NCBI GenBank assembly: GCA_038063195.1
Contig: JBBTVO010000011.1
Coordinates: 1 to 62,050, forward strand
DNA: 62,050 nt
Direction of reading: 5' to 3'
Source: Patescibacteria group bacterium
GTDB lineage: Bacteria; Patescibacteriota; Microgenomatia; Levybacterales; UBA12049
In this document: positions 26,933-43,501 of the stretch, in pieces
Numbering within the stretch: the stretch's first letter is position 1
Layout of the letters: each line of letters starts with the position of its first letter
The notes under the pieces: generated by a model
Told to the model about the DNA's origin: nothing
Seen by the model: only the letters and a program-made list of their open reading frames with translations
Database searches by the model: none
Translations under genes and position numbers: made by a program

Positions 26933-26962
26933 TCTAGCTAACTAATCGCTAGTGGCTAGTCT
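26933..26962. repeat. CTAG-rich repeat, inverted copy (contains CTAGTGGCTAGT)
   Basis: tctagctaactaatcgctagtggctagtct. The 14-mer tcgctagtggctagt recurs at 32197-32210. Confidence 0.8.
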
Positions 26963-27009
26963 CTAAATTCCTTGACAAGGTCTTGAAAATATATCAGACT
27001 AAGGTAGGA

Positions 27010-28704
27010 ATGAAATTTTCTGCCCTAAAGTTACTTCTTTTTTTCTTTTCTATTTTCGTTCTTTTGGGATTTCTGGTAAAACCTGCTCAAGCCCAAACAG
27101 ATTACGAGACCCAGCCTTCTTCATCCGCTCCTACCTCCCAAACAACTACTGGCCATTACACTGCTCCGAACACTGAGGATGATGTACCGAACAATCTTCA
27201 CACATACTCTCAAAACGTGCTTATTGAGGTAATGGCGGCAGTTGCCTGCCAGCTTACAGGAATTGATCCCAGTAACCTTTCTCAAAAATGTCTGGGAATA
27301 AATCCTTCGACCGGAAAGATCGGGTATGCAGGAAGTGACGGAGGAGCGATAGGCTTTATGGGAAATATGATTGCGGTACTCTATGAACCTCCTGCACACG
27401 TCGGAGATTATGTTCAAAATCTTGCTCAGGATTTCGGAATAACCAATAAAACATACGCAAGACAGATAGATATCGTGCCTACTCTGAAAAAACCTTCAAC
27501 CACAGCAGATACCAGGGGAATTGGCTTTGAGGGATTAAGTCCTCTGCTGAATATTTGGAAAGCTTTTAGAGATATTGCTTATCTTCTATTTGTGCTCGTA
27601 TTTATTATATTGGGTGTTGCGATAATGCTGAGGGTAAAAATAGACCCCCGAACTGTAATGAGCATACAAAATCAAATACCCAAAGTTATCATTGGCATCT
27701 TGCTTGTGACATTTTCTTTTGCAATTGCAGGATTTCTTATTGACGTTATGTGGATTGCTATCTATCTTTTTTACGGTGCGTTCGCAAATATTAATATTGC
27801 ACCAGAGGGGGCACCCGCTGTCCTTCTTGATGTTTCTCAATTTAGCCCTCAAAACATAACTGGGACCACTCCTCTCGGGGCAATCGGAGGATTTGGAGGA
27901 ATAGGTGATTTATCAAGAGATGGTTCGGGTGCTATTAAAAGTGTTATCTCAAGCCTTTTCAGCAATAGTGCTGGATCAATTGTTGCTGCAATATTAGGAG
28001 GACTAATAGGAACTGCAAGCTGTGCCGCTACAGGACTTGGGCTCTTGATTTCACCTATCTGCGGTCTGATAGGAGCTGGAGCTGGGGCAGCTATTGGAGG
28101 GAGCTTAATATCCACCATTGGAGGATTTATTGCATTTATAATTATTGCGGTAGCACTTCTTTGGGCGCTTATCAGGGTTTGGTTTATTCTTCTTATGGCT
28201 TATATAATGATCCTACTTGATGTGGTATTTGCGCCATTCTGGATCATAGGAGGAATATTTCCCGGAAGCAAGATAAGCTTTAGTGGATGGCTTCGTGATC
28301 TCGTAGGTAACTTGGCTGCGTTTCCTGCAGTTTTTGTTATGTTCTTGCTTGGCAAAACTTTTATTGTCGCTTTTGCCAGCGGTCCGGGAGAAGCGTCTAA
28401 TTTCCTACCGCCATTTATAGGAAACCCTACCGATTACAAGTCGTTTGGAGCCCTGATCGGTCTTGGGATAATTCTTACGACTCCCAATGCTGTCAAGATG
28501 ATGAAGTCAGTCTTTGGCGCTCCACAAATCGATGTCTCTTCAATAGGTCAGGCAGTTAGCGCGGGGGCTGCGGCTCCGGGACGTCTAATTGGCGGAGGTG
28601 CATCTGCTATCTTTACTCCTCACTATAATAAAGAAGGTACTAAATTTGTTTATCCAGGTGGTCCACTTGGAAAAGCTATTAGGGCATTTGGTCTGGTACG
28701 TTGA
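27010..28704 (+). CDS. polytopic membrane protein, candidate VirB6/TrbL-like T4SS channel component
   Basis: Signal peptide MKFSALKLLLFFFSIFVLLGFLVKPAQA after an aaggtagga RBS. At least six hydrophobic helices and Gly-rich loops. Assignment rests on architecture and position only. Confidence 0.5.
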   Translation: MKFSALKLLLFFFSIFVLLGFLVKPAQAQTDYETQPSSSAPTSQTTTGHYTAPNTEDDVPNNLHTYSQNVLIEVMAAVACQLTGIDPSNLSQKCLGINPSTGKIGYAGSDGGAIGFMGNMIAVLYEPPAHVGDYVQNLAQDFGITNKTYARQIDIVPTLKKPSTTADTRGIGFEGLSPLLNIWKAFRDIAYLLFVLVFIILGVAIMLRVKIDPRTVMSIQNQIPKVIIGILLVTFSFAIAGFLIDVMWIAIYLFYGAFANINIAPEGAPAVLLDVSQFSPQNITGTTPLGAIGGFGGIGDLSRDGSGAIKSVISSLFSNSAGSIVAAILGGLIGTASCAATGLGLLISPICGLIGAGAGAAIGGSLISTIGGFIAFIIIAVALLWALIRVWFILLMAYIMILLDVVFAPFWIIGGIFPGSKISFSGWLRDLVGNLAAFPAVFVMFLLGKTFIVAFASGPGEASNFLPPFIGNPTDYKSFGALIGLGIILTTPNAVKMMKSVFGAPQIDVSSIGQAVSAGAAAPGRLIGGGASAIFTPHYNKEGTKFVYPGGPLGKAIRAFGLVR

Positions 28705-28706
28705 TC

Positions 28707-31688
28707 TTATTTTCTACCAGCAGCTCCCTTTGCTCCTGATATTTCATACGCCTCTGAGAATAGAGCTGTAAGTAAAAAGATAAAGAAAGACATTCCTCTT
28801 CTGGCTGACTGTGGAAGAAGCCCAAGCTGAAGTTTTTTCTCAAGTCCTTTCCAGAGCGTCGGATCGCCATTCATTAGAGTGTTTATTTCATCCGCCTTTG
28901 CTCTTGCAGTATCGCGGCTTATAGGCGTTGCTTGTGGACCAAAAATTCTTTCAATTTTTGATATAGGTCTTCTGAATATTCCTTTTGATATACCCAGGCT
29001 GTCTGACATTAGATCCTGAAGAGAAGCTATAAGAAATGTGCCTCTGGTGAACCTTATACACTTTGCTCTCCCAGGTTCTCCATTATACTGGCTTACTGCA
29101 TCACCAAAAGCTCTTGCTGCTTTGTCATTTTCCTCATCGTGCTCGACATTCTTCATAAATCCAACAAGACTCTGTCCTGCTTTCATTCCGTTTGCGGTAT
29201 CATTCCAGATTCTTACATAGGCATCTCCGCCCTTATCTGTCCCAAACATCTTTGAAAGCGGCACTATTCCTCTTTCTTTTTCCTCATCGCTTACCAACTC
29301 AAGCCTATCAAGCAATGCATCGTCAACGGTTAAAGTACGGTTATAAATATCCTCAAATTTAGTACTAGTCATAAGCTGATCAATCATTTTGTTATCCGTT
29401 ATATACTTTTGCATTGCTGCAAATATCCCTACTGCATCACTTACCGCTTCTTCACTACCCATTATCTTGAGAAAAGATGCTTTTTGTTCGTCAGTTAGAG
29501 TTGCTAAGTTAATTTGTTCAGGGGCCCACTTTTTCTTCCCAGCCGGGTTGCCTTCATCATCCAATACATCTATCTCTTTTCTAAAATATTCTTCCCTTAG
29601 CATTCTTATCGCCGCTCCGTATTTGTCTTTAAACTTGGTATATGCAGTGATCTTCCCCATATCAGGATGCTCTTCATCATTTTTGTTTATCAAACGGTTA
29701 TGTTCTTTTTCTTCGTCTGTAAGCCTCAGGTAGTCATCCACACCTTCAAGTTGTGCGTAAAGACCTTCCAGTTGGCCATTGTCTCTTTCTTTAAAAAGCC
29801 TTATTATTTCTTCCGGCCGATAGCCAGCTATTTTGTCCCATATTTGCGCCCTTGCTCTAACTCTTTCCCTACCTTCACCAATTCTAGGATCTTTAAGTCT
29901 TAAAAATAGCCCAAAATCCTGTGCATTTTCAAATCTGCTTTCTATTGACTTAAGTATTCCTTGTACCCTCCAGCTAGATGAGAAAAAGTCAGGAACAAGG
30001 AAAAGATCTCTAAAGAGCCTCGTCCCAAGCTCAATCTTATCCTCTCTGCTCATAGACCAGGTGCTTTTCCCTCTTGTTTTAAGATCTTCATCTGCCATGT
30101 CTATTTTCGTCTCATCTAAATACTTTCGTTCATCTTCAGTGTAGAGTCCGAATTTTGCTGTAAGAAGATCCTCAAGGTTATAGACATTAAGAGGCCCCCC
30201 CACAGCATCTGAAAAGTAAGCATCTGCGCCTTGCAAATGTTTTCCTCTTGCAGTAATAACTGCCTGACGCTGGGACGAAACGAAGACATCATAAGCTGTG
30301 CCTATTGCTCTTTTTATCTCTCCTTCCATCTCTGCCTGATTTTTTTCAGCGCTGAAGAAAATTCCAATCCCTCTTCCCGCCATATCTATCTGCTCTTTAA
30401 TTAGTTTATCCTGCAGCTTTGCTTGCATCTCAGGTGTTACATGGTTTCTCTCAGCCTTAAGTCTCTCGTTCTCAAGTAGCTCGTCAAATCTGTTAAACAT
30501 TGCCCCTACCTTCCCATCCTCAAAGCTCATACCTGTAAATAGTCCATGAACCTGAAGATTATAAGATTCCTGCTGTATTTGCTCTATGCTTCTATAACCT
30601 ATAGCTGATCGCATTTTTAATAAGTTAAGTCTGATTATTTGTAGTTTTTCAAATTCCTGTAAGCTTTTATTAAGCCTATCTGCTTCACCGGTATTACCTG
30701 TATCAGCTTCTACTGCCGCCTTTTCTTTAAGAATTCTCATAGCCTCACTTGCCTGTTGCAAAATACTGTTTACAATAGGTGAGTCAAATGCCTGTCCTTC
30801 GGCGGCGATACGGTATATAACGTCAAACTGACTATTCAACCAGGCTATTGGGTCTCTAGCGATAGCCTCTATTGCAGGCTGGCTTATGTAAAGACTGCTC
30901 GTTTCCCTTCTTCTCTCTTCCATGGCAGTTCTTTCATCAGCTCTAGTATTTGCTATCTTCTCATTTATTTTCTGCAATAGCATATCTCGATCAGCTTCTT
31001 GTCCTAGTGTAACTGTCATTGCTGCTACCTGATCGTGGATATCCGTGAGCCTATCTGAGGATACACCAAGACTTGCAAGATTATTATTGTATCGCTCGCC
31101 AATAGCCTGTATTCCTGCGTCTCCGATACCACTGATATCTATGGCGGACGGGCGTGGTCCTCCCGCAGCCATAGTCCCGGGGCCCATACTAAGCGGCTCT
31201 GGTTGTAAATGGCTGTTTGTTGCTCTCAGGATTAGTTTCCCAATATCCGCTCCTCTGTCTTGGAGCTCTGCTAACATTCCCCACCCTACCTGCTGGGCTT
31301 CAGAAGCAATACCTTCTCTCTCAAAACCTTCTGCATGTCCCATTGCTAGGCGTTGTCTCTCAGTAAGTAATTTTACGTAGGCGTCTTCAAGGTCAGCATC
31401 TGACCATTTATTAAGAGGGTTAATTTCTAACTTAGCTTTTAAATCTGCTGCGAATTCTTTAAGAATCGGGGTTTTTATATTCTCAAGGTCTGGTGATGCC
31501 CATTTTGGAGACTCGATAGGTGGCGTTTCCTGAATACTAGAACTTTTTATAGGTGGTCTCTCTGACTTACCTTGATCCATGAAAATATTTCCTCTTACAT
31601 CAAGTGTAGGAACAACCGGCGGGGTTGTCAAATCCGCCGAAGGCGAGACAGGCTTATTAAATTGTGCTCGAACTTCAAATTCTTTCAT
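28707..31688 (-). CDS. 993-aa tail-anchored protein of unknown function
   Basis: Long uninterrupted ORF. Pro-rich N-terminus, largely helical/charged body, single C-terminal TM helix (MSFFIFLLTALFSEAY). No NTPase or relaxase motifs seen. Confidence 0.7.
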   Translation of the reverse strand: MKEFEVRAQFNKPVSPSADLTTPPVVPTLDVRGNIFMDQGKSERPPIKSSSIQETPPIESPKWASPDLENIKTPILKEFAADLKAKLEINPLNKWSDADLEDAYVKLLTERQRLAMGHAEGFEREGIASEAQQVGWGMLAELQDRGADIGKLILRATNSHLQPEPLSMGPGTMAAGGPRPSAIDISGIGDAGIQAIGERYNNNLASLGVSSDRLTDIHDQVAAMTVTLGQEADRDMLLQKINEKIANTRADERTAMEERRRETSSLYISQPAIEAIARDPIAWLNSQFDVIYRIAAEGQAFDSPIVNSILQQASEAMRILKEKAAVEADTGNTGEADRLNKSLQEFEKLQIIRLNLLKMRSAIGYRSIEQIQQESYNLQVHGLFTGMSFEDGKVGAMFNRFDELLENERLKAERNHVTPEMQAKLQDKLIKEQIDMAGRGIGIFFSAEKNQAEMEGEIKRAIGTAYDVFVSSQRQAVITARGKHLQGADAYFSDAVGGPLNVYNLEDLLTAKFGLYTEDERKYLDETKIDMADEDLKTRGKSTWSMSREDKIELGTRLFRDLFLVPDFFSSSWRVQGILKSIESRFENAQDFGLFLRLKDPRIGEGRERVRARAQIWDKIAGYRPEEIIRLFKERDNGQLEGLYAQLEGVDDYLRLTDEEKEHNRLINKNDEEHPDMGKITAYTKFKDKYGAAIRMLREEYFRKEIDVLDDEGNPAGKKKWAPEQINLATLTDEQKASFLKIMGSEEAVSDAVGIFAAMQKYITDNKMIDQLMTSTKFEDIYNRTLTVDDALLDRLELVSDEEKERGIVPLSKMFGTDKGGDAYVRIWNDTANGMKAGQSLVGFMKNVEHDEENDKAARAFGDAVSQYNGEPGRAKCIRFTRGTFLIASLQDLMSDSLGISKGIFRRPISKIERIFGPQATPISRDTARAKADEINTLMNGDPTLWKGLEKKLQLGLLPQSARRGMSFFIFLLTALFSEAYEISGAKGAAGRK

Positions 31689-31772
31689 GCGCTGAGTGTA
31701 TAGGAAGAGCAGGCGGAGTACTTGACGTTTACATTACAGCTTCCTGACGATATACTTACAATAGAATTAAAC

Positions 31773-31817
31773 AGCAACTAGCAGGCTAGCAATTAGCCAC
31801 TAGTTATTAGGCACTAG
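31773..31817. repeat. CTAG-rich repeat upstream of a four-helix-bundle gene
   Basis: agcaactagcaggctagcaattagccactagttattaggcactag. Confidence 0.75.
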
Positions 31818-31821
31818 AATT

Positions 31822-32202
31822 ATGAAAATAACATCCTACAGAGAGCTGATTGTATGGCAGAAATCAATGGATTTAGCAACTTTAATATTTAACATAACTA
31901 AGTCTTTCCCTGCTTCTGAGCAGTATGGACTTACAAATCAAATAAGAAGGGCTTGTTTTTCAATCCCATCAAACATAGCAGAGGGATTTTGTAGAGGCGG
32001 TAGGCCAGAATTCAGACAATTCCTGCAAATCGCATTTGCATCCGGAGCAGAGCTTGAAACAGAACTGGAAATAGCTAAAAACATTGGAATATTACAAGAT
32101 AAAGATTATAAAATTTTAATTTCAAAGCTTGATGAAATCATGCGAATGCTGAATAAAATGATCAGAACTGTTAGAGATAATCAGAAACAATCTAGTCGCT
32201 AG
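31822..32202 (+). CDS. four-helix-bundle protein (23S rRNA intervening-sequence protein family)
   Basis: YRELIVWQKSMDLATLIF...FPASEQYGLTNQIRRACFSIPSNIAEG is the family signature. Confidence 0.85.
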   Translation: MKITSYRELIVWQKSMDLATLIFNITKSFPASEQYGLTNQIRRACFSIPSNIAEGFCRGGRPEFRQFLQIAFASGAELETELEIAKNIGILQDKDYKILISKLDEIMRMLNKMIRTVRDNQKQSSR

Positions 32203-32221
32203 TGGCTAGTTGCTAATCGCT
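32191..32221. repeat. CTAG-rich repeat downstream of the four-helix-bundle gene (inverted relative to 31773-31817)
   Basis: tctagtcgctagtggctagttgctaatcgct contains CTAGTGGCTAGT, the reverse complement of ACTAGCCACTAG. Confidence 0.8.
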
Positions 32222-33604
32222 ATGGAAGCTACACATTTCGAATCTCTATATCCAGCACAGTCCCGCTTTGACGAGATTGAGAAAATACTTAAATTTGCCA
32301 GAGAAGGGAAATCTTCTCAGCTTGTGGGGCTTCCCGGAGTAGGTAGGTCAAATACTCTTGGGCTTTTAAGCTACAACAAGAATATAAGAAAGAAACATTT
32401 GGGCGAAAATCAGAAATGGTTTCATTTTGTCTCCTGCGATTTTTCAGAAATCCGCAAGAAGCCTGTCTCTGATGCGATGAAATTTATATTCCTGCGCCTT
32501 GCTGATTCGCTTCGCGAAAGAAAAATATTAAAAAACGCAGAATCTGAATTCGCAGGAGAAGGCTCTTTTGAGCAGATTGATAAAATTTTTAAAGAATCTG
32601 CCGCGACAAATGACGAGATGGTTCTTTTTCAGGGTCTCAAGCGCGCAATAGACTTCCTTTGTATTGAAAAAGAGCTGACAATTGTATTCTTGTTCGACAG
32701 ATTTGAAGAATATATTCCAATGCTTACTCCCGAGTTTTTTGCAAACTTAAGGGTCTTGAGAAACCGCGCAAAGTACAGATTCTCAGTAGTATTTTCTCTT
32801 AATAGACCCCTTGAAGAACTTATCGAGCCCATACTTTTTGCCGATTTCTATGAATTTCTTGCAGATAATATTGTCTATCTTCCTATTTTGGATAAACCCG
32901 GCTTAGATTTCAGGATTTCTTATCTCGAAAAAGTGACAATGAAACAATTGAACAATGAAACAATTGAACAAGTCCTTTTACTAACCGGCGGACACGGGAA
33001 GCTTACAAGACTCAGTCTGGAAACAATATTAGCAACTAGCGACTGGCCACTAGCAACTAGTGAAAAACTGCAAGAGTTTCTGTTGGAGCAAAAAAGCGTA
33101 AAAGCAAGTCTATACGAGATATGGATATCGCTAATTCCGGAGGAACAATTACTGCTAGCGTCTAGAGAAAAGCGTTTAGCGTTTAGTTTTTCAGGTAGTT
33201 CCTACTTAGAGAAAATTGGACTTCTTAAAAATGAAGTAATAACTATTCCCCTTTTTGAAGAATTTATCTCAACCCTACTTCGTCAAGACTCCGGAAGGGC
33301 ACAGCAAATATCTTTTGATCAGAACACAAATGAGATCAAAATGGGCGAAACAGCTCTGTCTGATTCTTTAACTTCATCTGAATTCAAGCTTCTTAAATTT
33401 CTTCTTGATAATCCAGACAAACTAATCGAACGGGAAGAAATAATTAAGGCCGTATGGAAAGATGAAAAGACCACAGAAGGAGTCACAGACCAGGCACTTG
33501 ACCAGCTTATATTCCGCCTTCGCAAAAAAATTGAAGTTGATCCAAATAATCCTGTCCACCTCCAAACCTTAAAAGGCAAGGGGATAAGGTTTAGCAATCG
33601 CTAG
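32222..33604 (+). CDS. P-loop NTPase-like domain fused to an OmpR/PhoB-type winged-helix DNA-binding domain
   Basis: Walker-A-like GLPGVGRSN (Arg where Lys is expected), Walker-B-like IVFLFDRFEE. C-terminal LTSSEFKLLKFLLDNPDKLIEREEIIKAVW...ALDQLIFRLRKKIE...LQTLKGKGIRF matches trans_reg_C. The ATG at 32222 is preferred over the TTG at 32210. Confidence 0.75.
   Translation: MEATHFESLYPAQSRFDEIEKILKFAREGKSSQLVGLPGVGRSNTLGLLSYNKNIRKKHLGENQKWFHFVSCDFSEIRKKPVSDAMKFIFLRLADSLRERKILKNAESEFAGEGSFEQIDKIFKESAATNDEMVLFQGLKRAIDFLCIEKELTIVFLFDRFEEYIPMLTPEFFANLRVLRNRAKYRFSVVFSLNRPLEELIEPILFADFYEFLADNIVYLPILDKPGLDFRISYLEKVTMKQLNNETIEQVLLLTGGHGKLTRLSLETILATSDWPLATSEKLQEFLLEQKSVKASLYEIWISLIPEEQLLLASREKRLAFSFSGSSYLEKIGLLKNEVITIPLFEEFISTLLRQDSGRAQQISFDQNTNEIKMGETALSDSLTSSEFKLLKFLLDNPDKLIEREEIIKAVWKDEKTTEGVTDQALDQLIFRLRKKIEVDPNNPVHLQTLKGKGIRFSNR
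33029..33062. repeat. CTAG-rich repeat embedded in-frame in the NTPase-wHTH gene
   Basis: ttagcaactagcgactggccactagcaactagtg encodes LATSDWPLATS. Same word family as 26081-26110. Confidence 0.75.
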
Positions 33605-33714
33605 ACTTTTAAATTTTCAATTTTTAATTTTAATTGAAAACTTCAAATTTTAAATTTCAAATTAAATTCCGTCGCCTATTGACGTAGGACGACCAATAAG
33701 TATACGATAATTGT

Positions 33715-34980
33715 GTGAGAAAGTTTCTGCTCTTCATTCTTTCTTTTTATATATTCCTCTCTTTTTTCTATACAAAAACTTTCGCAAGCTATACTGTAAA
33801 GGCTGATCCTCCAGTGACATCTGCTAATCCATTTAACGGACAACCTACCCACAAATCTGCATTGCAAATATTTAAAGACTTAAGTCTTTCAGCTCAATCC
33901 CCTATTATTACCGAGAACACAAACACAGTCACAATTAACTTCGAAAACCTTGGACAAAATAAAGAATATGTAGTTTGGGCAGGAAAAGAGGATTTCCTTG
34001 GCAAATATTCTTCTTCGGCAGACAGAAAGCTAGATTTTGCAGTCTGTGGCTGGGGAAGTATACTTAAATTAGCTGACAAAGACAATCCTGGTACAGGAAA
34101 ATGTGCAGATGATGATTATTTCCACGCTGGAACTTATACTCTTCAAATATGTACTGACGAGGAATGTAATAACGTTGTGGAGTCTGTACCCCTTTCTGTG
34201 GCTCGTTACTATCCTGATTTTATAATTAGCGAGAAAGATCCTGTTACAGTAACTTTAATTGGATTAAGAAAACGAAACGACGACGGAGGACGAAATAATT
34301 ACTCAATAGAAATCTCCCGTATGTCAGACCTTGGTAAAGAAATTGAAGAACACTGCACCACAGTTAAGCCTGACGGAACCAATGATCCCCCAGTTACTTT
34401 CAAATCTCTTGAGCCTGGCAATTATGAACTTAGAATTAATGAAAGGCAGAAGGAGGGGAATTCATTTACCCGCGCATTTGGCAGTGATTGTAATACTGGT
34501 TTTACTTATTACTCTGTCCGGCTGTTTGTTGGATTAGATGGAGCAATAAAGGTAGAAGAGGTTATCGCTGATCCATATGGTCAGGATGTCGGAGGACAAG
34601 AGCGAAAAGATTATAAAGCTCCGAATGCGCCATGCGAAGTAGATCAGAAAACCGGAAAAGGAAAGTGTCCTACCGGTCTTGGTATATCTATAAATACAAG
34701 CCCAGGTGGCTTCGTCAGGTCTGTATTTGGGCTTATCTTAAGTATCGCAGGCGGAATTGCGCTTCTTCTTATAATATACTCCGGATATCAGCTAATTACA
34801 TCTCAAGGCACTCCTGAAAAGCTTGAAGCAGCCAGACAGCAGCTTGTTTCAGCAATTGTCGGACTCTTGTTTATAATTTTCGCACTGGTTATTCTTCAGG
34901 TAATAGGGGTAGATATTTTGCAAATTCCTGGTTTTGAACCAAGCACTACGTCTCATTCCCAAAAATCAGCGGCACCTTAA
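33715..34980 (+). CDS. secreted protein with large N-terminal domain fused to a C-terminal VirB2/TrbC-like T4SS pilin module
   Basis: GTG start. Signal peptide ...FFYTKTFA. The C-terminal ~90 aa (LILSIAGGIALLLIIYSGYQLITSQGTPEKLEAARQQLVSAIVGLLFIIFALVILQ) is paralogous to the three small pilins downstream. Confidence 0.7.
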   Translation: MRKFLLFILSFYIFLSFFYTKTFASYTVKADPPVTSANPFNGQPTHKSALQIFKDLSLSAQSPIITENTNTVTINFENLGQNKEYVVWAGKEDFLGKYSSSADRKLDFAVCGWGSILKLADKDNPGTGKCADDDYFHAGTYTLQICTDEECNNVVESVPLSVARYYPDFIISEKDPVTVTLIGLRKRNDDGGRNNYSIEISRMSDLGKEIEEHCTTVKPDGTNDPPVTFKSLEPGNYELRINERQKEGNSFTRAFGSDCNTGFTYYSVRLFVGLDGAIKVEEVIADPYGQDVGGQERKDYKAPNAPCEVDQKTGKGKCPTGLGISINTSPGGFVRSVFGLILSIAGGIALLLIIYSGYQLITSQGTPEKLEAARQQLVSAIVGLLFIIFALVILQVIGVDILQIPGFEPSTTSHSQKSAAP

Positions 34981-34983
34981 ATT

Positions 34984-35310
34984 ATGATTGTAAAAAATGT
35001 TGATTATTTAGCACTTAAACTAGGGGACACAGAAATTGGTGCGCCGGGAGGAATCCCAACTGGGGGTACAGGCACAGGTCAAAAAATAATCCAAACAGGA
35101 ATAACACTTTTGTTTATATTTGCCATCATTCTTGCCCTTTTCTATATCGTGCAGGGTGGAATTCAGTGGATAGTATCAGGCGGAGATAAACAGCAGATAG
35201 ATCAGGCAAGACTGAGAATTACATATGCAATAGTAGGTCTTGTTATAGTTCTTGCCGGGTTTTTCATAGTAAATCTAGTTTCCGGAATTTTCAAGATAAA
35301 TTTTTTCTAG
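34984..35310 (+). CDS. VirB2/TrbC-like T4SS pilin paralogue
   Basis: 108 aa. Two TM helices flanking a conserved WIVSGGDKQQIDQAR loop. Confidence 0.7.
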   Translation: MIVKNVDYLALKLGDTEIGAPGGIPTGGTGTGQKIIQTGITLLFIFAIILALFYIVQGGIQWIVSGGDKQQIDQARLRITYAIVGLVIVLAGFFIVNLVSGIFKINFF

Positions 35311-35361
35311 CAAAAGTAGCTCTTGACAAAGTAAAAAATTCATAATAGCATTAACTTAAGC

Positions 35362-35790
35362 ATGAAGAAATTTATTCCAGCCATTGCCCTCTCAACATAT
35401 CTTCTAACTCCCGCTGTTGCTTTTGCTCAAACGAGTGTATCAACATGCCCGCCTGGTCAATTTAATGTCCTTTGTGGTTTTACAGCTAGCAGCTTTGGAA
35501 GCGTAGTAAGTACTCTTGTCAGTGTACTTTTTGTAATTGCAGTAGTAATTGCATTGGTATTCTTAATCTGGGGAGGTATAAAATGGATTCTCTCAGGCGG
35601 AGATAAAAGTGCTGTTGAGAGCGCAAGGAATACTATAGTTGCGGCAGTAGTCGGATTGATAATAGTCTTCCTGTCTTACTTTATATTGAATATCGTTCTC
35701 GGATTCTTTGATATTAAGCTTGCAGACCTTAAGATTCCCAAAATAAACCCGGCTGCACCAATTGAAACGCCTGAAACGCCTTCTTTGTAA
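35362..35790 (+). CDS. VirB2/TrbC-like T4SS pilin paralogue
   Basis: 142 aa. Signal peptide ...PAVAFA, then two TM helices flanking WILSGGDKSAVESAR. Confidence 0.7.
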   Translation: MKKFIPAIALSTYLLTPAVAFAQTSVSTCPPGQFNVLCGFTASSFGSVVSTLVSVLFVIAVVIALVFLIWGGIKWILSGGDKSAVESARNTIVAAVVGLIIVFLSYFILNIVLGFFDIKLADLKIPKINPAAPIETPETPSL

Positions 35791-35837
35791 TCTCTTCTAG
35801 TCTTGCCTTTTTTTTCCTTCCCTGCTAATCTAGTTAT

Positions 35838-36149
35838 ATGCCATGGACAGACTGTCTTTCCCCAGAAGGGGTAGCAACCCTTAACTGCATCCCTATTGTT
35901 TTTAGTAACATCGTTAATTGGGCGCTTATACTATCAGGTACGACTGCTTTGTTCTTCGTAATAATCTCGGGCACGAGATACATAAGGTCCGGAGGAGATC
36001 AGGAGAAAATTAAAGGCGCAAGGGAGACTCTGACTTATGCAATAATAGGGTTGGTTATTATCCTACTTTCGTTCGGCATAATAAATTTCATAAGCTATGT
36101 TACAAACGTCGAATGTATAAAGCAATTTGGTTTTGGAAACTGCACATGA
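35838..36149 (+). CDS. VirB2/TrbC-like T4SS pilin paralogue
   Basis: 103 aa. Two TM helices flanking YIRSGGDQEKIKGAR. Confidence 0.7.
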   Translation: MPWTDCLSPEGVATLNCIPIVFSNIVNWALILSGTTALFFVIISGTRYIRSGGDQEKIKGARETLTYAIIGLVIILLSFGIINFISYVTNVECIKQFGFGNCT

Positions 36150-36153
36150 AGCA

Positions 36154-36350
36154 GATACTAGATACTAGTTGTTAGATATTAGCATTTAGTTAATAATTTC
36201 CAGACTATTATCTAGTATCTATTACCTATTAACTGTCAGGTTTTCACAGCCAGCTTCAATTCTCAGAAATTTTGACACATTTTGATTATCTTGCATTGAT
36301 ATTTTTCACATAGTTAAATAGATAATAGATACTAGTTACTAGATATTAGT
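36154..36350. repeat. TAG/ACTAG-rich repeat blocks upstream of the second four-helix-bundle gene
   Basis: gatactagatactagttgttagatattagc...tctagtatctattacc... and tagataatagatactagttactagatattagt. The terminal 14-mer tactagatattagt is inverted at 36722-36735. Confidence 0.75.
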
Positions 36351-36358
36351 AAATACAA

Positions 36359-36733
36359 ATGGCAAGTATTAAATCATACAAGGACTTAATTGTATGGCAA
36401 AAATCTATGATTTTAGTAAAAGAGGTTTTTGCTCTAACAGCAAGATTTCCAAAATCTGAACTATATGGAATTATTTCTCAAATCAGAAGATCCGCTATAA
36501 GTATTCCATCCAATATCGCCGAAGCGTTTGGCCGAAGATCTGTTAGGTCAACTGCTCAATTTTATTCAATTGCACTCGGCTCAGCGCTGGAGCTTGAAAC
36601 GCAGCTTCTGATATCACGTGACCTTAAGATGGCGGATTTGCAATATTTTAAACCAAGCGATGACTTATTATTGGAAGTTTGCAAAATGTTGAATTCAATG
36701 ACTGGGAAATTAAAGTTCTCAACTAATATCTAG
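36359..36733 (+). CDS. four-helix-bundle protein (23S rRNA intervening-sequence protein family)
   Basis: YKDLIVWQKSMILVKEVF...FPKSELYGIISQIRRSAISIPSNIAEA. Paralogue of 31822-32202. Confidence 0.85.
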   Translation: MASIKSYKDLIVWQKSMILVKEVFALTARFPKSELYGIISQIRRSAISIPSNIAEAFGRRSVRSTAQFYSIALGSALELETQLLISRDLKMADLQYFKPSDDLLLEVCKMLNSMTGKLKFSTNI

Positions 36734-36750
36734 TATCTAATTACTAATAA
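36722..36750. repeat. inverted copy of the ACTAGATATTAGT repeat, overlapping the stop of the four-helix-bundle gene
   Basis: actaatatctagtatctaattactaataa. Its reverse complement ends ...gatactagatattagt. Confidence 0.75.
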
Positions 36751-36756
36751 CTATTT

Positions 36757-37956
36757 ATGGAAAATCATCCAATACCTCAGGACATTACTGGCTTTCAATT
36801 TAAGCTGATTGGAGATATGACAATCAAACAATTTGCTTATCTTGCTGCGGGCATAATACTTGGCTGGATTACTTATATCCTGCCCATATTTATAATTATA
36901 AAAATCCCGATACTTGTTACTTTTGTAGGACTTGGTGTTGCGGCCGCATTTTTGCCAATTGAAGGAAGACCATTTGATGTAATGATAGGGAATTATTTTA
37001 AGGCGCTCTTGAGCCCTACTCAATATATATACCAAAAAATCGGGGGACATATCTGGTTCCCGGATACACCTATTCAGAATCAGAAAGCTGCCCAAAGTAT
37101 TGCTCCAAGCGATAATGCCGAGTCCTCGAGAAAGCTTAAGGAGTTCTTAAAATCATTACCCCAGAAGCCCAAAAATAAGCTGGATGAAAAGGAAATGAAT
37201 TTCTTAAATTCCCTGGGATTCTCTCCTACTGCTGTCTCAGTTCCAGTTGTAAATTCCGGAAACAGTGCATATGAAAAAATTATATCCCATCATGACCCGA
37301 TAATTCCTCTGCAGATACATCCTGAAGAAAAAAAAGAGCCTGATAAGAATCCTGAGCCAAAACTTAATCACGACGAAACACAACCCGGGAAAGAACCCGA
37401 AAAAGCAAAACTGCCTGAAAAAGTTCAGGAAAGTCTTCCTCAGTATAGTATCGCCCAACAGGAACTACTTTCTCAAAAACAAAACCTTGAAAATCAGGTT
37501 CTTGAGCTAAGAAATAAAATGAGTGCGCAAAACCAAAATATTACCACATCGGACGCTTCAGCTGTAAAACAGGAGAGCCAGACGGTAAGAACAATACCAA
37601 GAAACATGGGAAAAACAGCAGGACTTCCCTTCATGTCTGACGTGCCAAATCTCATAATGGGTATTATTAAAGGGCCGCGGGAAAATCCTCTTTCAAATAT
37701 TCTGGTGGAGGTAAAAGACACAAGCGGCAATCCCGTAAGAGCCTTTAAGACCAATGCTCTTGGCCAATTTTCCTCAGCGACCCCGCTTGGAAACGGAACA
37801 TATACGATATCGTTTGAAGATCCCAAAAGCGAAAATAAATTCGATATAATCGAGATAAAAGCCAATGGAGACGTGCTTATGCCGCTTGAAGTCATTTCCC
37901 TTGACCAAAGAGAAGAATTAAGAAGGTCACTATTTAATCCGGCACAAAAATCATGA
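36757..37956 (+). CDS. PrgI-like (VirB3-analogue) membrane protein with C-terminal carboxypeptidase-regulatory-like beta-sandwich
   Basis: N-terminus IPQDITGFQFKLIGDMTIKQFAYLAAGIILGWITY plus a second TM helix resembles the PrgI family of Gram-positive T4SS. C-terminal ILVEVKDTSGNPVRAFKTNALGQFSS...GTYTISFED. Confidence 0.6.
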   Translation: MENHPIPQDITGFQFKLIGDMTIKQFAYLAAGIILGWITYILPIFIIIKIPILVTFVGLGVAAAFLPIEGRPFDVMIGNYFKALLSPTQYIYQKIGGHIWFPDTPIQNQKAAQSIAPSDNAESSRKLKEFLKSLPQKPKNKLDEKEMNFLNSLGFSPTAVSVPVVNSGNSAYEKIISHHDPIIPLQIHPEEKKEPDKNPEPKLNHDETQPGKEPEKAKLPEKVQESLPQYSIAQQELLSQKQNLENQVLELRNKMSAQNQNITTSDASAVKQESQTVRTIPRNMGKTAGLPFMSDVPNLIMGIIKGPRENPLSNILVEVKDTSGNPVRAFKTNALGQFSSATPLGNGTYTISFEDPKSENKFDIIEIKANGDVLMPLEVISLDQREELRRSLFNPAQKS

Positions 37957-38618
37957 GTAAAACTGCCCAAAAGAAAAATTCAACCACTCAGAAATTTATA
38001 GAAATCGACCACATCGAAGAAGATATTGCACTTCTGTCCGGAAAGCACGCCTGTCTTATAATAGAAGTGAATGCGACTAACTTCGCGCTTTTGTCCAAAG
38101 AAGAACAGGATACCAAAATATTTTCCTATGCTTCGCTTCTCAACTCCCTCTCCTTTCCCATACAGATTTTCATAAGAAGCAAGAAGCTTGATATATCTGC
38201 TTATCTTAAGCTTCTTGAGGCTCAGGCCTCTCAATCACAAAACCACCTCCTTTCATCCCAGATACGTCTTTATAGAGACTTTATTAAAGAGCTTGTTAAA
38301 GTAAATACGGTTCTTGATAAAAAATTCTACATTGTCCTTTCTCACTCATCTCTTGAAAGAGGCGTTCATAATGCAAAAGCTACAGAGAAAAAGAATATTC
38401 CTGCAGATTCTTTCGCTTCAACTGCAAAGACAACGCTTCATTCAAAAGCAGAATCAGTTCTCTCCCAGCTCGCAAGATTGAACCTGCGGGCCAAAACACT
38501 TCAGAAGGAAGAGCTAATAAAGCTTTATTACGAAATTTATAATGGCAGTACTGTTGAGACCAATCAAATATCTGATGATATAAGTACGCCAATAGTCAGA
38601 GGAGGAAATCAGGCATGA
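37953..38618 (+). CDS. T4SS-associated protein resembling a VirB4 N-terminal domain (no ATPase motifs)
   Basis: 221 aa. FIEIDHIEEDIALLSGKHACLIIEVNATNFALLSKEEQ...SLSFPIQIFIRS pattern. Translationally coupled on both sides (ATGA overlaps). Confidence 0.5.
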   Translation: MSKTAQKKNSTTQKFIEIDHIEEDIALLSGKHACLIIEVNATNFALLSKEEQDTKIFSYASLLNSLSFPIQIFIRSKKLDISAYLKLLEAQASQSQNHLLSSQIRLYRDFIKELVKVNTVLDKKFYIVLSHSSLERGVHNAKATEKKNIPADSFASTAKTTLHSKAESVLSQLARLNLRAKTLQKEELIKLYYEIYNGSTVETNQISDDISTPIVRGGNQA

Positions 38619-40618
38619 GTCTTTTTGGGAACAAGAAACAGCCGCAGGAAATAAAAAATCCGACCGTAACTTACCCTGCTCAGCAGCCGGCTCCAAAACC
38701 TGCGGCAATAAATTCTCAGCCACAGCCGCAGCCGCCTGCAAAATCACTTCCGGGAATTGAGAAGCTTGAAAAAGGAATATCATCATTAAATGATATTATT
38801 GCCCCATCATCTATTGAAGTGGACTTTAATTTTATAAGAGTCGGGGATCATTACTACAAGACATTTTTTATAATTGGTTACCCCCGGTTCGTCTCTCCAA
38901 ACTGGCTATCGCCCCTTATTGATTTTGACCATTCAATGAATATCTCAATGTTTTGCTATCCTGCTTCATCAAACGACGTCTTATCAGATTTAAGACGGAA
39001 AATTGCCGAGATGGAAGCAACTCTATCTTCTCAGGCAGAAGAAGGAAAAATCACAGACCCGAAAGTTCAGGCTGCGCTTGAGGACGCGCTTTCTCTTCAG
39101 GAACAGCTAGCAAAAGGAGTCGAGAGATTTTTCCAGTTCGGGCTTTATATAACTCTTTTTTCGGAAAACCTCCAGGATCTTGAGGACTCGGCAAGGAGAT
39201 TAACATCAACGCTCTCCTCAATCCTTCTGATACCCAAGATGACAACGCTTCAGATGGAAGACGGTTTCAAGTCCACAATTCCTGCGGGGCTTGACAGGCT
39301 TTATATAACAAGGAACATGGACACTACATCTCTTGCCTCAACTTTTCCGTTTACCTCAGCAACTCTTACTCAGGACAAAGGCATAATGTACGGAATAAAT
39401 GAGCAGAATGGCTCACTAATAGTCTTTGACAGATTTTCTCTCGAGAATGCCAATGAAATCGTATTGGGAAAATCAGGAGCAGGAAAGTCATATCTTATTA
39501 AACTTGAGGCTCTTAGGCAATTTATGTTTGGCACTGAAGTCATAATAATAGACCCCGAAGGTGAATATGAAGCTCTTTCAAAAACTCTGGGCGGTGAACA
39601 CGTATCATTTACCCCTTCTGACCCTATAAAAATAAATCCATTTGATCTTTCAGGGCTTTATGAAGAAGGAGAAAATGAGCTGGGGCTTAAAATCCTTTCT
39701 CTGCATGGACTCTTGCGGATAGTTATGGGAGAGCTTGGGGCTGCGGAAGATGCGATACTTGACCGCGCGCTGGTTGAAACATATCGGCAAAAAGGAATTA
39801 CAGCAGAGCCGTCAACGCAGAAAAATCAGCCTCCTCTTATGGAAGACTTATATAAGGTTTTGCTTGGAACTGAGGATGCGACGGCAAGAGGCCTGGCCTT
39901 GCGGCTTGAGAAGTTTATTAAAGGAAGCTTAAACGGAATATTCAATCAGCAGTCAAATTTTGATATAACTAATCCATTTACGGTTTTTTCAATAAAGGCG
40001 CTTGAGGAGGAACTGCGGCCAATTGCGATGCATATAATCCTTGACTTCGTCTGGACGAGAGTAAGAAAGAGTCTCAAGAAAAGATTATTAATTTTGGATG
40101 AGGCATGGTATATTATGAAATACGAAGATTCCGCAAGCTTTGTGTATGGAATTGCCAAGCGGGCAAGAAAATACTACCTTGCCCTAACTACGGCAACGCA
40201 GGATGTGCAGGATTTCCTGTCCACCGACTACGGAAAAGCAGTCCTTTCAAACTCATCAATTCAGATGCTTCTTAAGCAAAGTCCCACTGAAGTCGACTTG
40301 ATAAGTAAGGAGTTTTATCTCTCAGAAGGAGAGCGTGAGCTCTTGCTTTCTGCTGATGTTGGAGAAGGACTCTTCTTCGCAGGCCAAAGTCATGTAGTAA
40401 TAAAAGTTATCGCAGCGCCATTTGAGCATACAATTATAACATCTAATCCTCAAGAAATTTTAAAACAGAGAGAAGATGCAGGACAAGCAGGCGAGGCGCC
40501 TACTCAGCCTCAAGCTCCGGTCTCAGCTATTGAACAGATTTCAAAAGAGCCGGCACCCCAAAGCCCTCCAAGTCAACCGCAAGATTCAGCTACACCTCCT
40601 GCGTCTGGCGGGTCGTAG
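38615..40618 (+). CDS. virB4: VirB4/TraC-like T4SS ATPase
   Basis: 667 aa. Walker A GKSGAGKSY, Walker B LLILDEAW. The N-terminal domain pattern (IRVGDHYYKTFFIIGYPRFVSPNWLSPLI) is typical of VirB4 homologues. Pro/Gln-rich termini. Confidence 0.85.
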   Translation: MSLFGNKKQPQEIKNPTVTYPAQQPAPKPAAINSQPQPQPPAKSLPGIEKLEKGISSLNDIIAPSSIEVDFNFIRVGDHYYKTFFIIGYPRFVSPNWLSPLIDFDHSMNISMFCYPASSNDVLSDLRRKIAEMEATLSSQAEEGKITDPKVQAALEDALSLQEQLAKGVERFFQFGLYITLFSENLQDLEDSARRLTSTLSSILLIPKMTTLQMEDGFKSTIPAGLDRLYITRNMDTTSLASTFPFTSATLTQDKGIMYGINEQNGSLIVFDRFSLENANEIVLGKSGAGKSYLIKLEALRQFMFGTEVIIIDPEGEYEALSKTLGGEHVSFTPSDPIKINPFDLSGLYEEGENELGLKILSLHGLLRIVMGELGAAEDAILDRALVETYRQKGITAEPSTQKNQPPLMEDLYKVLLGTEDATARGLALRLEKFIKGSLNGIFNQQSNFDITNPFTVFSIKALEEELRPIAMHIILDFVWTRVRKSLKKRLLILDEAWYIMKYEDSASFVYGIAKRARKYYLALTTATQDVQDFLSTDYGKAVLSNSSIQMLLKQSPTEVDLISKEFYLSEGERELLLSADVGEGLFFAGQSHVVIKVIAAPFEHTIITSNPQEILKQREDAGQAGEAPTQPQAPVSAIEQISKEPAPQSPPSQPQDSATPPASGGS

Positions 40619-40636
40619 TTTAATTATTATTAATTT

Positions 40637-41887
40637 ATGGCACAAAATAATCAAGAAAATGGGCTTGATGATGCTAGAAGACTAGGAGCTGCTTTGCTCC
40701 AGAATGCAGCAAGAAGCGCTGTAAGCGGTTTTGCGGTACCTATTGCAATAGTAATTGCAGTTATTTTGATCGTAACTTTTATTATTCTGCTTGGCGGAGG
40801 CGGTGGGGCAACCCCCGGCCTTGCCAACAACAACACTCCTCCAGTGGGAGACAATCCCGGAAGCCCCCCTGTACCAGCTGGCCCCAATCTAAATTACACA
40901 ATTAAATTCAGGGATACAACTGTCGTTCCTGTAAAAAGCACATCTATCGATGCAATAAAACAGCAATTTCCGAAAGCACAAGTTCAGTATTACGATATAA
41001 TCGTGGATCGCGCAATACAAGCAGGCTGGAATCCAGCTTTTGTTCTTACTCTCTGGATAGAAGAAACAGGCGCTTCCCAGAACACAAAAATAGCCGCAGG
41101 CGGAGCCGGAGTTTTACCAGCGTCTAATGGACACCTTGGGTGCGCTCCATGGGAATTACAGACTATAAACGAAAGTCTTGATTGTCTTTTCAAGAATTTC
41201 TCGGGATATTCAAATGATCAGTTTGAGAAGTTTATGAGGACATATTCAGGAGAGAGCTCCGATTCTGGTCCTTTCGTAAACAACCCAAATTTCCCCGGGA
41301 ATGTTTTGAAATTTTATTCAATGCTCGTCCCTTCAGGCCCAGGAGCCGCAACGGGAACAGGCGGGACGACAGCCGGAATTCAAGTTTCCTGTCCCATCAA
41401 TAAAACCAACAACACCGCTTATTTTACCTGTGGTACAGCTACGAATCCGCGAAATGGCTGCGGACATGGTGTCCCACCTGTATATCCACCGTGCACGCAA
41501 CCACCATACGCATTCTGCCCTTTCTCCGAACAGCTTAAGAATTCTGTAGACATTCAGTTGTCACCCGGAAATGGATCAAATCTACCCGTTTATCTTCCGA
41601 CTATCAACGGGGCATCGCAGCAATGGACGTTTACGGGAGGCACATATATTGACAGCGGTAACGCTTCAAAACAGGCATATGAAACTAATTCTGGAGGACA
41701 TAATATAATCGCAGTATTTACGCATCTCAACCAACGAACTCCTCTTGCAGGAAGTAGGGCAACTTACTCTTCGGGAACAAAGGTTGGCACGACTTTTGCC
41801 GGAAAAAACCACCTTCATGCAGAAATCGTAATTGATGGAATCCCAACAGACCCAATAACTGGAGTTTCAATGTGTACGGGAAGTTAG
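40637..41887 (+). CDS. membrane-anchored putative cell-wall hydrolase (VirB1-like role) with C-terminal M23-peptidase-like motif
   Basis: N-terminal TM helix, Gly/Pro linker, central region AIQAGWNPAFVLTLWIEETG, C-terminal GKNHLHAEIVIDGIPTDP resembling the HLHxE motif of M23 peptidases. Confidence 0.5.
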   Translation: MAQNNQENGLDDARRLGAALLQNAARSAVSGFAVPIAIVIAVILIVTFIILLGGGGGATPGLANNNTPPVGDNPGSPPVPAGPNLNYTIKFRDTTVVPVKSTSIDAIKQQFPKAQVQYYDIIVDRAIQAGWNPAFVLTLWIEETGASQNTKIAAGGAGVLPASNGHLGCAPWELQTINESLDCLFKNFSGYSNDQFEKFMRTYSGESSDSGPFVNNPNFPGNVLKFYSMLVPSGPGAATGTGGTTAGIQVSCPINKTNNTAYFTCGTATNPRNGCGHGVPPVYPPCTQPPYAFCPFSEQLKNSVDIQLSPGNGSNLPVYLPTINGASQQWTFTGGTYIDSGNASKQAYETNSGGHNIIAVFTHLNQRTPLAGSRATYSSGTKVGTTFAGKNHLHAEIVIDGIPTDPITGVSMCTGS

Positions 41888-41902
41888 ATATACTTATAGA
41901 CA

Positions 41903-42394
41903 ATGAGCAGAATTATTAATTATCGTTTTTTACTTCTAGCTTTTTTTGCCCTACTTTTCTTAGGATTAATAACAATAATCTTCTTAAGTATAACAAAAAA
42001 GCCAAAGCAGGTGGAAACATATCCATCCGATCTTTCAAGCGAAGACATAAGAAGAATTACACCAATTGATTCTCAAGATAAAAGAAAACCGTTAAGAATC
42101 TTGGCTGAAACAAAATCAGAAGCCAATTTTGGGATTCAAAAAGCATTTGTGGTACATTTTTCTGAAAAACCTTCGCCTTTTTACTTTTCTTATTCAATTA
42201 CGCCTAATGCAACTATAAGTGCAACTATCGATGAGAACAATATGGTTCTTATGCCCATCCCGCGCTGGGAATCAGAAACAGAATACAAGCTGACTGTAAA
42301 TAAAGATACAAGAGACGTATACGGCAATCTATTGGATAGGAATTACGAATTCAGGTTTACAACTATTCGCGATGAAATCTATGAAATCTATTGA
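41903..42394 (+). CDS. membrane-anchored Ig-like (SbsA/Big-type) domain protein
   Basis: 163 aa. TM helix then a single beta-sandwich-like domain ending YEFRFTT. Confidence 0.5.
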   Translation: MSRIINYRFLLLAFFALLFLGLITIIFLSITKKPKQVETYPSDLSSEDIRRITPIDSQDKRKPLRILAETKSEANFGIQKAFVVHFSEKPSPFYFSYSITPNATISATIDENNMVLMPIPRWESETEYKLTVNKDTRDVYGNLLDRNYEFRFTTIRDEIYEIY

Positions 42395-43501
42395 TCAACC
42401 TTGAATCCTTATCGGCATTATTATGTGGAGATAGTTGGGCTCGCCTTCTATTTTAAAAACTCCTGAATTAAGAGGGCCGGACATTTCAAAGATTATTTTT
42501 TCTCCATCCGTATTTGAAAGAAACTCTAGAACATATCTTACGTTAAATGCAATTTCGTTTTCTTCCCCCTCCATAGTGGCATCGACATCAATAGTTGTCT
42601 CACCTACTGACGGCGCGGATGCTGAAACAACAATCTTATTTTTCCCAATAGATAATTTAATAATATTGGCAGTTTCTCTCGCAAAAACAGCACAGGTCTT
42701 AACAGCCGAAAGAAAGTCTTTCCTGTCTATCACAGCTTTTGTCGAATAATCCTGAGGAATAATCTTTTGATAGTTGGGAAATTCTGCTTCAATAAGTCTT
42801 CCCACCATAATAACATCCTCCTGCTCAAAAATAATCTGATTACTTTTGGGAGAGACGCGGACAGATACATCTCCGCCGTCTTTAAGCATTGCAAGTTCCC
42901 TTAATATTCTTGAAGGCACCAGGATTTTATCCTCGTCCCCGTCTCCTACGCCACCCTTTTTAAAGGATAATCTGTATCCGTCGGTTGCCACCATATAGAA
43001 ATCTCCCTTCCTGCTTTTTCCCCTGCCAAACAAGACACCTGAAAGAGCAGGTCTTCCAGTGTCCTGCGATGCTGAAAAAACAACTTCAGGGATTTCTTTT
43101 TCCAAAACTTCTTTGGTAAAAATCCCAATCTCTTCACCTTTTTCTTCGTAGATCTTAGGAAACTCGTCTGCCTTTATTGTCTGGAAAATTGTTCTTATCT
43201 TGTCTCCTTCAAAAATAAGATTGTTTTCTTCTGTTTTTAAAACTATCTTACCTTTATCAACGCTTGATAAAAGGTCATAGAATGTCTTAGCCGGTACTGT
43301 TACTGACCCCTCCTCTTCGATACTTGCGGGTACTTCTGCTTCTATTCCTATTTCAAGATCTGTAGCGCTTATTGTGAATTTACCTTTTTCTGCTTTGAAG
43401 AGAAAATTTAAAAGAATTGGAAGTTGAGATCTGCTTGAGACTGCATGGTTTACAATTGAAATTTTCTTATTAACATTTTCGCAGAGGAACGAGACCTTCA
43501 T
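42395..43501 (-). CDS. dnaN: DNA polymerase III beta sliding clamp
   Basis: 368 aa. Three-domain clamp pattern, N-terminus MKVSFLCENVNKKISIVNHAVSSRSQLPIL, directly downstream of dnaA. Confidence 0.9.
   Translation of the reverse strand: MKVSFLCENVNKKISIVNHAVSSRSQLPILLNFLFKAEKGKFTISATDLEIGIEAEVPASIEEEGSVTVPAKTFYDLLSSVDKGKIVLKTEENNLIFEGDKIRTIFQTIKADEFPKIYEEKGEEIGIFTKEVLEKEIPEVVFSASQDTGRPALSGVLFGRGKSRKGDFYMVATDGYRLSFKKGGVGDGDEDKILVPSRILRELAMLKDGGDVSVRVSPKSNQIIFEQEDVIMVGRLIEAEFPNYQKIIPQDYSTKAVIDRKDFLSAVKTCAVFARETANIIKLSIGKNKIVVSASAPSVGETTIDVDATMEGEENEIAFNVRYVLEFLSNTDGEKIIFEMSGPLNSGVFKIEGEPNYLHIIMPIRIQG

Follow-up and report, generated by a model that had tools for sequence, protein, structure and literature searches.

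Described pilin arrays and the locus studied here

Type IV secretion systems (T4SSs) of Patescibacteria commonly encode their pilins in tandem. Quinonero-Coronel et al. 2025 (PMC12102498) surveyed 3,035 genomes of Patescibacteria for the Pfam families PF18895 (T4SS_pilin) and PF04956 (TrbC/VirB2) and described 441 VirB2 arrays of 2-11 genes, notably in Microgenomatia and Saccharimonadia, often near dnaA and virB4 and with paralogue identity averaging 25%. The pilin series of Southlakia was found to be essential (Wang et al. 2023, PMC10633639), a result repeated in a 2025 review, so that the tandem array as such is already known from these publications. Here we analyse a stretch of 62,050 nucleotides (the window) from a Patescibacteria group bacterium of the order Levybacterales (GCA_038063195.1, contig JBBTVO010000011.1), in which four contiguous pilin genes, named here p1 to p4, lie 2.5 kb upstream of virB4 and the first, p1, encodes a pilin module behind a large secreted head.

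The locus falls under the array definition of PMC12102498 (2-11 pilin genes, in tandem or one non-pilin gene apart, near virB4). With the Patescibacterial arrays described there and elsewhere, such as SEML1_0014-0019 of Southlakia epibionticum ML1 and the array of Nanosynbacter lyticus TM7x, it shares tandem PF18895 genes adjoining PrgI/VirB3 and VirB4, a position next to dnaA, a paralogue identity of ~25% and, as far as general scans reach here, the lack of a relaxase or coupling protein nearby. In the arrays described so far the pilins are small (those Southlakia pilin genes for which a size is listed measure 381-417 bp, and SEML1_0015 matches PF18895 at residues 115-180), whereas one class here carries a head of ~300 amino acids (aa). 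Moreover, the PMC12102498 survey does not split arrays into orthologous classes, whereas the four classes found here are fixed across the order. Pilins with large extracellular domains are unmentioned in PMC12102498 and PMC10633639, and a full-text literature search for PF18895 returned only the published array work and one structure-clustering preprint. We regard the locus as an ordinary member of the published kind; the feature for which we found no description is a conserved pilin class with a rapidly diverging immunoglobulin (Ig)-like head within a fixed four-class cassette.

The Gram-negative VirB2/TrbC/TraA pilins of PF04956 share with the four proteins a small, strongly hydrophobic hairpin of two helices and a short basic loop, together with the co-encoded VirB3 and VirB4 homologues, and their cleavable leader recurs in p3. 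Unlike this locus, those systems combine one pilin gene with a separate VirB5 tip adhesin and outer-membrane components that are lacking here, and we know of no characterised VirB2/TrbC/TraA pilin with an N-terminal globular domain. A search with the TrbC/VirB2 model, suggested by an earlier sequence-only reading of the window, did not reach the cut-off: p3 alone matched PF04956 (E 7.7e-4, 20.1 bits against a cut-off of 27.9 bits), while p1, p2 and p4 gave no PF04956 match in the Pfam hmmscan. The pilin-like proteins of Mycoplasma integrative and conjugative elements (ICEs; NF045849 Mbov_0395/MMCAP2_0565 and NF045848 MMCAP2_0566) share the monoderm setting and a conjugation context of mating-pair-formation type FATA (MPF-FATA), and the Mycoplasma ICE VirB4 model is matched by the VirB4 N-domain protein of the window. 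All four pilin modules matched these pilin-like models below the 40-bit cut-off (E 3e-7 to 9e-5, 22-30 bits); the Mycoplasma proteins differ in lying on mobile elements with DNA-transfer genes, and their models record no Ig-like heads. Our label "VirB2-like" for the four pilins follows from the Pfam naming, the sub-threshold PF04956 match of p3, the sub-threshold Mycoplasma ICE matches and the genomic context.

p1 joins a pilin module to a secreted beta-sandwich head

The four genes lie on the forward strand: p1 at 33715-34980 (GTG start, 421 aa), p2 at 34984-35310 (108 aa), p3 at 35362-35790 (142 aa) and p4 at 35838-36149 (103 aa). The sequence-only reading had proposed four tandem pilin open reading frames (ORFs) here, with the C-terminus of p1 resembling the three small proteins, and both proposals, with the motifs quoted for them, were borne out. 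Relative to the PF18895 gathering cut-off of 26.6 bits, hmmscan matched p1 at residues 332-397 (E 1.3e-9, 38.4 bits), p3 with E 7e-9 (36.1 bits) and p4 with E 1.1e-10 (41.9 bits). p2 is borderline, marginally below the cut-off in hmmscan (E 7.2e-6, 26.4 bits) and at 26.6 bits in a six-frame genome search, and its orthologues group firmly with the pilin family under a custom hidden Markov model (HMM; E 1e-18 to 1e-42). Aligned with MAFFT, the last 108 aa of p1 and the proteins p2, p3 and p4 show 24-29% identity and 14 invariant columns, and together with the PF18895 matches this identifies the likeness as genuine homology. The hairpin that defines PF18895, two long hydrophobic helices with a short polar loop, appears in the AlphaFold2 models of p1 and p3.

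The p1 model, built on an alignment of 22 full-length homologues, has a mean predicted local distance difference test (pLDDT) score of 80.8 and displays the domain order of the protein. A Sec-type signal peptide occupies residues 1-24 (33715-33786), with a hydrophobic helix at 2-19 and a putative cleavage site in ...KTFA/SY, where A24 is nearly invariant among the 22 homologues and the consensus reads AFA/xYT. Preceded by a strand (25-31) and a helix (47-59), the head (33898-34575) is modelled as two tandem beta-sandwiches of the Ig or fibronectin type III (FN3) kind, at residues ~62-165 and ~166-287, with pLDDT mainly above 90. A Pro-rich linker of low confidence follows (34576-34701), disordered in the model with pLDDT <50 at 294-317, and comprises a conserved Cys307...Cys318 loop and a pre-helix motif. 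The pilin module (34702-34917) closes the protein with a helical hairpin, 330-362 and 367-401, around the loop SQGTPEKLEAARQQ.

Conservation runs through all these parts. Across the 22 homologues C111, C130, C214, C259, C307 and C318 are invariant or nearly so, C111/C130 and C214/C259 being the conserved cysteines of the two head domains. The linker has invariant C307, C318, T320, I326, T328 and P330, with P303 and P306 close to invariant, and the end-to-end alignment further displays a Pro-rich PPPPC stretch and a strongly conserved hairpin. The sequence-only description of the 421-aa protein as a pilin module carrying a large secreted domain thus holds, on the joint evidence of the AlphaFold2 model, PF18895 and the full-length homologues.

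The sequence-only reading had also proposed a search of the predicted head structure for adhesin or lectin folds. Foldseek against the PDB returned generic tandem FN3/Ig proteins (E ~1e-5), among them cytokine receptors, fibronectin and the SiiE adhesin, and the candidate lectin or specific adhesin fold was rejected; Pfam gave only sub-threshold matches to SdrG_C_C and Y_Y_Y (E ~0.1). The tandem Ig/FN3-like fold, predicted with confidence, is frequent in adhesins without being diagnostic of them.

One objection, raised as an assembly fusion by the sequence-only reading, is that a secreted-protein gene and a small pilin gene were joined into the 421-aa ORF by assembly or annotation; nothing was found in its favour. 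A search of 5.8 billion proteins gave 319 relatives of p1, about two dozen of which have comparable length, 82-97% coverage and 34-40% identity. Dozens of independent assemblies (NCBI, JGI, ENA, Logan) contain unbroken homologues of this architecture, 395-650 aa long, that match end to end without internal stops and carry Levybacteria or Patescibacteria names at source, and the 22 aligned homologues span the junction at full length with invariant residues on both sides. Because the same architecture recurs in so many independent assemblies and is alignable across the junction, we conclude, from comparative sequence data, that p1 is a real fusion, and we give an artefact a negligible probability.

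Four orthologous classes in a fixed order

A single-sequence p1 query of genome contigs yielded no confirmed relative, and a profile search of the order was used instead. Of 151 genomes sampled from the order, 147 had a match to the p1 profile. Thirty loci were fetched, their ORFs called and scanned with an HMM of the four modules, and the complete order of a long pilin followed by pilins of ~110, ~135 and ~100 aa was present in 20 of the 30. In a FastTree phylogeny of these 20 loci (83 module columns) every gene position formed its own clade of 20 members, with support of 0.76-0.90 (0.87 for p2 and 0.89 for p4), and the p1 class was sister to the p4 class. Mean identity within classes was 0.53 for p1, 0.39 for p2, 0.52 for p3 and 0.54 for p4, against 0.28-0.36 between classes, and the four classes keep their order across two families of the order.

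Each class also has N-terminal features of its own. Alignments of 20 orthologues showed that p2, which has no signal peptide, keeps an N-terminal tail motif L.L..PG...I.AP.GIPTG, and that p4, likewise devoid of a signal peptide, has a Cys pair in W..C....VATL.C.P immediately ahead of helix 1. Among the small pilins, a Sec signal peptide (...AVAFA/QT) occurs in p3 alone; it is present throughout the p3 class and is followed in the AlphaFold2 model by a helical hairpin, 42-77 and 82-115. Judged from these trees and alignments, the four paralogues are anciently separated classes and not recent copies.

The sequence-only reading had offered functional specialisation or variation of a surface filament as explanations for the four copies. 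Since each position is monophyletic in 20 loci and has its own N-terminal features, the comparison favours specialised subunits over antigenic variation, and the first of the two suggestions gains support. The second would make the four genes recent, interchangeable pilins serving antigenic or phase variation, like the VirB2 paralogues of Bartonella and Anaplasma, an analogy that PMC12102498 raised for Patescibacterial arrays and with which a paralogue identity of merely 24-33% would agree; the genome also possesses a diversity-generating retroelement (DGR). Against it stand the fixed distinguishing features of each class and the orthologous clades by position in two families, with no sign of within-genome duplication or gene conversion.

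The DGR was looked for because two Avd-like four-helix-bundle genes flank the array. The single DGR of the genome lies on another contig (C13:3752-5606, L059), where a reverse transcriptase (4995-5606; PF00078, E 4.6e-22) accompanies a 134-bp template repeat (TR, 4252-4385) paired with a variable repeat (VR, 3752-3885); all 19 of their 19 mismatches are at TR adenines (10 to G, 8 to C, 1 to T). The pilin locus contained no TR-like match, and positions 26000-45000 of the window no long diverged repeats. With the reverse transcriptase and the TR/VR pair on that other contig and no TR-like repeat at the pilin genes, variation of the head by the DGR was rejected. Recent or antigenic turnover of the four pilins is contradicted by this analysis, and we consider it very improbable.

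Two promoter-like sites accompany the array, both recognised by consensus match only: one at 33679-33708 ahead of p1 and one at 35323-35351 ahead of p3. Their hexamers end 7 nt before the GTG of p1 and 11 nt before the ATG of p3, and no Shine-Dalgarno-like sequence is evident ahead of either start (33679-33715 and 35323-35362), which, given how close the sites are to the starts, would imply leaderless or near-leaderless mRNAs for p1 and p3. Terminator predictions from the same scan were no better at the locus than in shuffled background.

A conserved stalk module with diverging heads

While about two dozen relatives match p1 over nearly its whole length, many more share the C-terminal module alone, at 50-80% identity, behind differing N-terminal regions, a few of which are recognisable (fn3 or PG_binding_1). 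In most genomes of the order the p1 profile was likewise matched only at positions ~300-412 (E 1e-35 to 1e-57), within long open frames of up to 901 aa. In 20 such loci a long pilin of 309-896 aa was found in each, mostly with three or four small pilins after it within the fetched stretch.

Among 50 p1-type proteins the C-terminal 110 residues were alignable in 1218 of 1225 pairs, with a mean identity of 52%. By comparison, 20 heads sampled outside the window's family fell into 15 clusters (one of 5, one of 2 and 13 singletons) without BLAST similarity between clusters; these heads had been selected for not matching the window's head, so that only the diversity among the 20 is informative. In two species of one genus the modules are ~80% identical and the heads barely alignable, and among members of the window's own head family the heads average 31% identity and the modules 53%. 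For the three closest pairs, Nei-Gojobori estimates (NG86) put the nonsynonymous divergence (dN) of the head 5-10 times above that of the module. Positive selection, considered as a candidate for the head, was not supported, the ratio of dN to synonymous divergence (dS) lying below 1 and dS near saturation; what the comparison documents is faster evolution.

The head family of the window is rare, with 46 representatives in 1.84 billion proteins, and is nearly restricted to pilin fusions, 30 of its 35 new representatives carrying the pilin module. Long proteins of this kind extend beyond the order: in other classes of the phylum, 27 of the 150 best PF18895 matches (301 genomes) lay in frames of 200 aa or more, the longest reaching 1263 aa, a rough figure given that the frames run from stop to stop. 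The statement of the sequence-only reading that VirB2-type pilins are normally small accordingly stands for characterised pilins and fails for Patescibacteria, where long PF18895 proteins are common.

The secretion-system neighbourhood

Downstream of p4, one cassette and prgI intervene before virB4, all on the forward strand. The cassette (36359-36733) encodes a four-helix-bundle protein of the 23S rRNA intervening-sequence protein (IVP)/Avd-like type (PF05635, E 6.3e-35), which we treat as context and not as a part of the pilus. It is followed by PrgI, which is VirB3-like and bears a C-terminal CarboxypepD_reg-like beta domain (36757-37956; PF12666, E 4.1e-8), and by a split VirB4 (37953-40618; NCBIfam and Pfam) composed of a 221-aa TrsD/TraC-like N-domain protein and a 667-aa ATPase. 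The 221-aa protein matches the NCBIfam model VirB4_plasma, the Mycoplasma ICE VirB4 model, at positions 97-239 (E 4e-11), and the ATPase matches a CD1110-family VirB4-like model above its cut-off (E 2.9e-113) as well as P-loop_TraG (E 2.7e-27). The stop and start of the two halves overlap, and the same split is seen in a syntenic Levybacteria locus (L006); it corresponds to the arrangement of TrsD plus VirB4 reported in PMC12102498. Past VirB4 come a 416-aa protein without a family match, a Big_5 protein and, on the opposite strand, dnaN and dnaA.

The entire locus is syntenic in L006, a 617-kb Levybacteria contig, in the order long pilin (422 aa), pilins of 109, 133 and 102 aa, PrgI, TraC-like protein, VirB4, a 480-aa protein, Big_5, dnaN and dnaA. 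Pfam and NCBIfam scans of 15 ORFs (at least 90 aa, 24000-50000) gave no relaxase or coupling-protein match, no search aimed at relaxases having been made. With a CD1110-family VirB4, PrgI and adjacent dnaN/dnaA, the context fits a chromosomal, relaxase-free, MPF-FATA-like T4SS.

Several further observations concern the surroundings. Two 23S-rRNA-IVP/Avd-like genes, at 31822-32202 and 36359-36733, with CTAG-rich repeats flanking them, bracket a block made up of a regulator and the pilin genes. In L006 the second IVP copy precedes the long pilin rather than following p4, so that these cassettes move relative to the pilin genes. A 578-aa polytopic protein encoded upstream of the cluster in L006 (L006:2524-4260), orthologous to the one encoded at 26983-28704 of the window, matches the four-module pilin HMM weakly (E 2.6e-4), which hints at a pilin-like hairpin inside it. 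A fifth PF18895 pilin of 106 aa is encoded on another contig, C33 (L058:6236-9239), directly ahead of an 896-aa protein with a weak TrbL/VirB6 match; the pair sits in a heat-shock cluster, hrcA-grpE-dnaK-dnaJ-[pilin-VirB6-like]-clpB, and this pilin branches outside the four array classes in the tree.

Discussion

The domain order of p1, the class structure of the array and its T4SS neighbourhood are direct observations, and on balance they lead us to lean towards the following reading: that the locus is the pilin cassette of a chromosomal, origin-proximal T4SS of Levybacteria-like Patescibacteria, made of four VirB2-like classes, with p1 a minor or tip pilin supplying host contact. Each of the four pilins would sit in the membrane with its two ends facing outward and the basic SGGDK...AR loop facing inward, and would be drawn out by the VirB4/PrgI machine into a single heteromeric structure, either a pilus or a wall-spanning conduit. 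In the F pilus and the Gram-negative VirB2-type pili both termini lie on the outer face, so that, by analogy, the N-terminal head of p1 would be displayed at the surface or tip of the filament. p1 would then be present in few copies, as a minor pilin or at the tip; its conserved stalk module would slot a head that evolves fast and can be exchanged into the filament, and this head may supply the host-contact, that is adhesin, function. The likeliest major subunit would be p3, as no other small pilin has a classical leader and as a promoter-like site of its own, weak as evidence, lies ahead of it. In type IV pili and type II secretion systems, minor pilins form a fixed set of about four (GspH-I-J-K; FimU-PilVWX with PilY1), the largest of which, with an extra domain, caps the tip. 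We take these as a functional analogy only, as their fold and machine are unrelated and no prepilin-peptidase signal is present here. PMC12102498 reports having detected no adhesins in the T4SS loci of Patescibacteria, which counts in favour of the head as an adhesin.

Several points weigh against this reading. No pilus of these proteins has been seen in any Patescibacterium, and the filaments imaged so far in a bacterium of the Candidate Phyla Radiation belong to a different, donor-strand-exchange system, the Pam pili (PMC13278184). The four-module profile found nothing below E 1 among PDB sequences, and the best PDB neighbour of the p3 model in Foldseek had an E of 1.2, with no pilin in the top 50, bare helical hairpins being poorly discriminated by such tools; the TrbC/VirB2 PF04956 match is sub-threshold. 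The fold of the p1 head is generic, with no recognisable binding site, and its dN/dS in the three closest pairs (NG86) is 0.09-0.32, with dS near saturation. Finally, the surface geometry of the termini would be borrowed from Gram-negative pili.

An unlikely alternative, one we nevertheless take seriously, is that p1 is a membrane-anchored part of the envelope, its hairpin merely an anchor and its Ig-like domains a wall-spanning scaffold or a tether for another filament. PamR of the Pam pilus (PMC13278184; Saccharimonadia, Microgenomatia) would be the precedent: compared by outline, both proteins have an N-terminal strand (25-31 in p1), two FnIII-like domains in tandem and a C-terminal membrane segment, other PF18895 proteins bear non-adhesin domains such as PG_binding_1, and monoderm T4SSs are generally without pili (PMC12102498). 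PamR, however, has a single C-terminal helix and is encoded in a pam operon with chaperone-like genes, whereas p1 possesses a full PF18895 hairpin within a T4SS operon. That module is sister to p4 and conserved beyond the needs of a simple anchor, p1 is always co-encoded with three small pilins and first in line, and head swapping within a genus would be unexpected of a structural scaffold.

p1 might instead be the major subunit of a thick filament with an Ig-like tandem head on every subunit, p2-p4 being minor. Its module ranks near the top of the four in conservation (mean identity 0.53 versus 0.39 for p2), the gene heads the operon behind the promoter-like site 33679-33708, and the flexible linker of ~40 residues could ease crowding. 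A 30-kDa head on each 8-kDa module would nonetheless be sterically demanding, as estimated from F-pilus dimensions, heads reach up to ~800 aa at orthologous positions, and p3, with its classical signal peptide and promoter-like site, better fits a canonical major pilin; we think this arrangement improbable.

Few machines have been shown to be indispensable to Patescibacteria living as epibionts; the T4SS, with its pilin array, is among them, and no adhesin is known for it. The p1-type class, with its built-in diverging surface domain, is a concrete candidate for host recognition, and the head domain, which can be expressed alone, offers a simple experimental handle. The four fixed subunit classes argue for a heteromeric structure with division of labour and against antigenic variation, and resolving them changes how the published arrays should be read. 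Going further, we tentatively raise the possibility, which at present appears more doubtful than probable, that the host-recognition adhesins missing from the essential T4SS of Patescibacteria are the p1-type pilins with their heads, each bringing an exchangeable Ig-like head, on its conserved stalk, into a heteromeric pilus of four classes, and that the head sets host range. If this were true, swapping or rapid divergence of the head, observed even inside a genus, would determine the host cells that an ultrasmall epibiont can attach to and tap.

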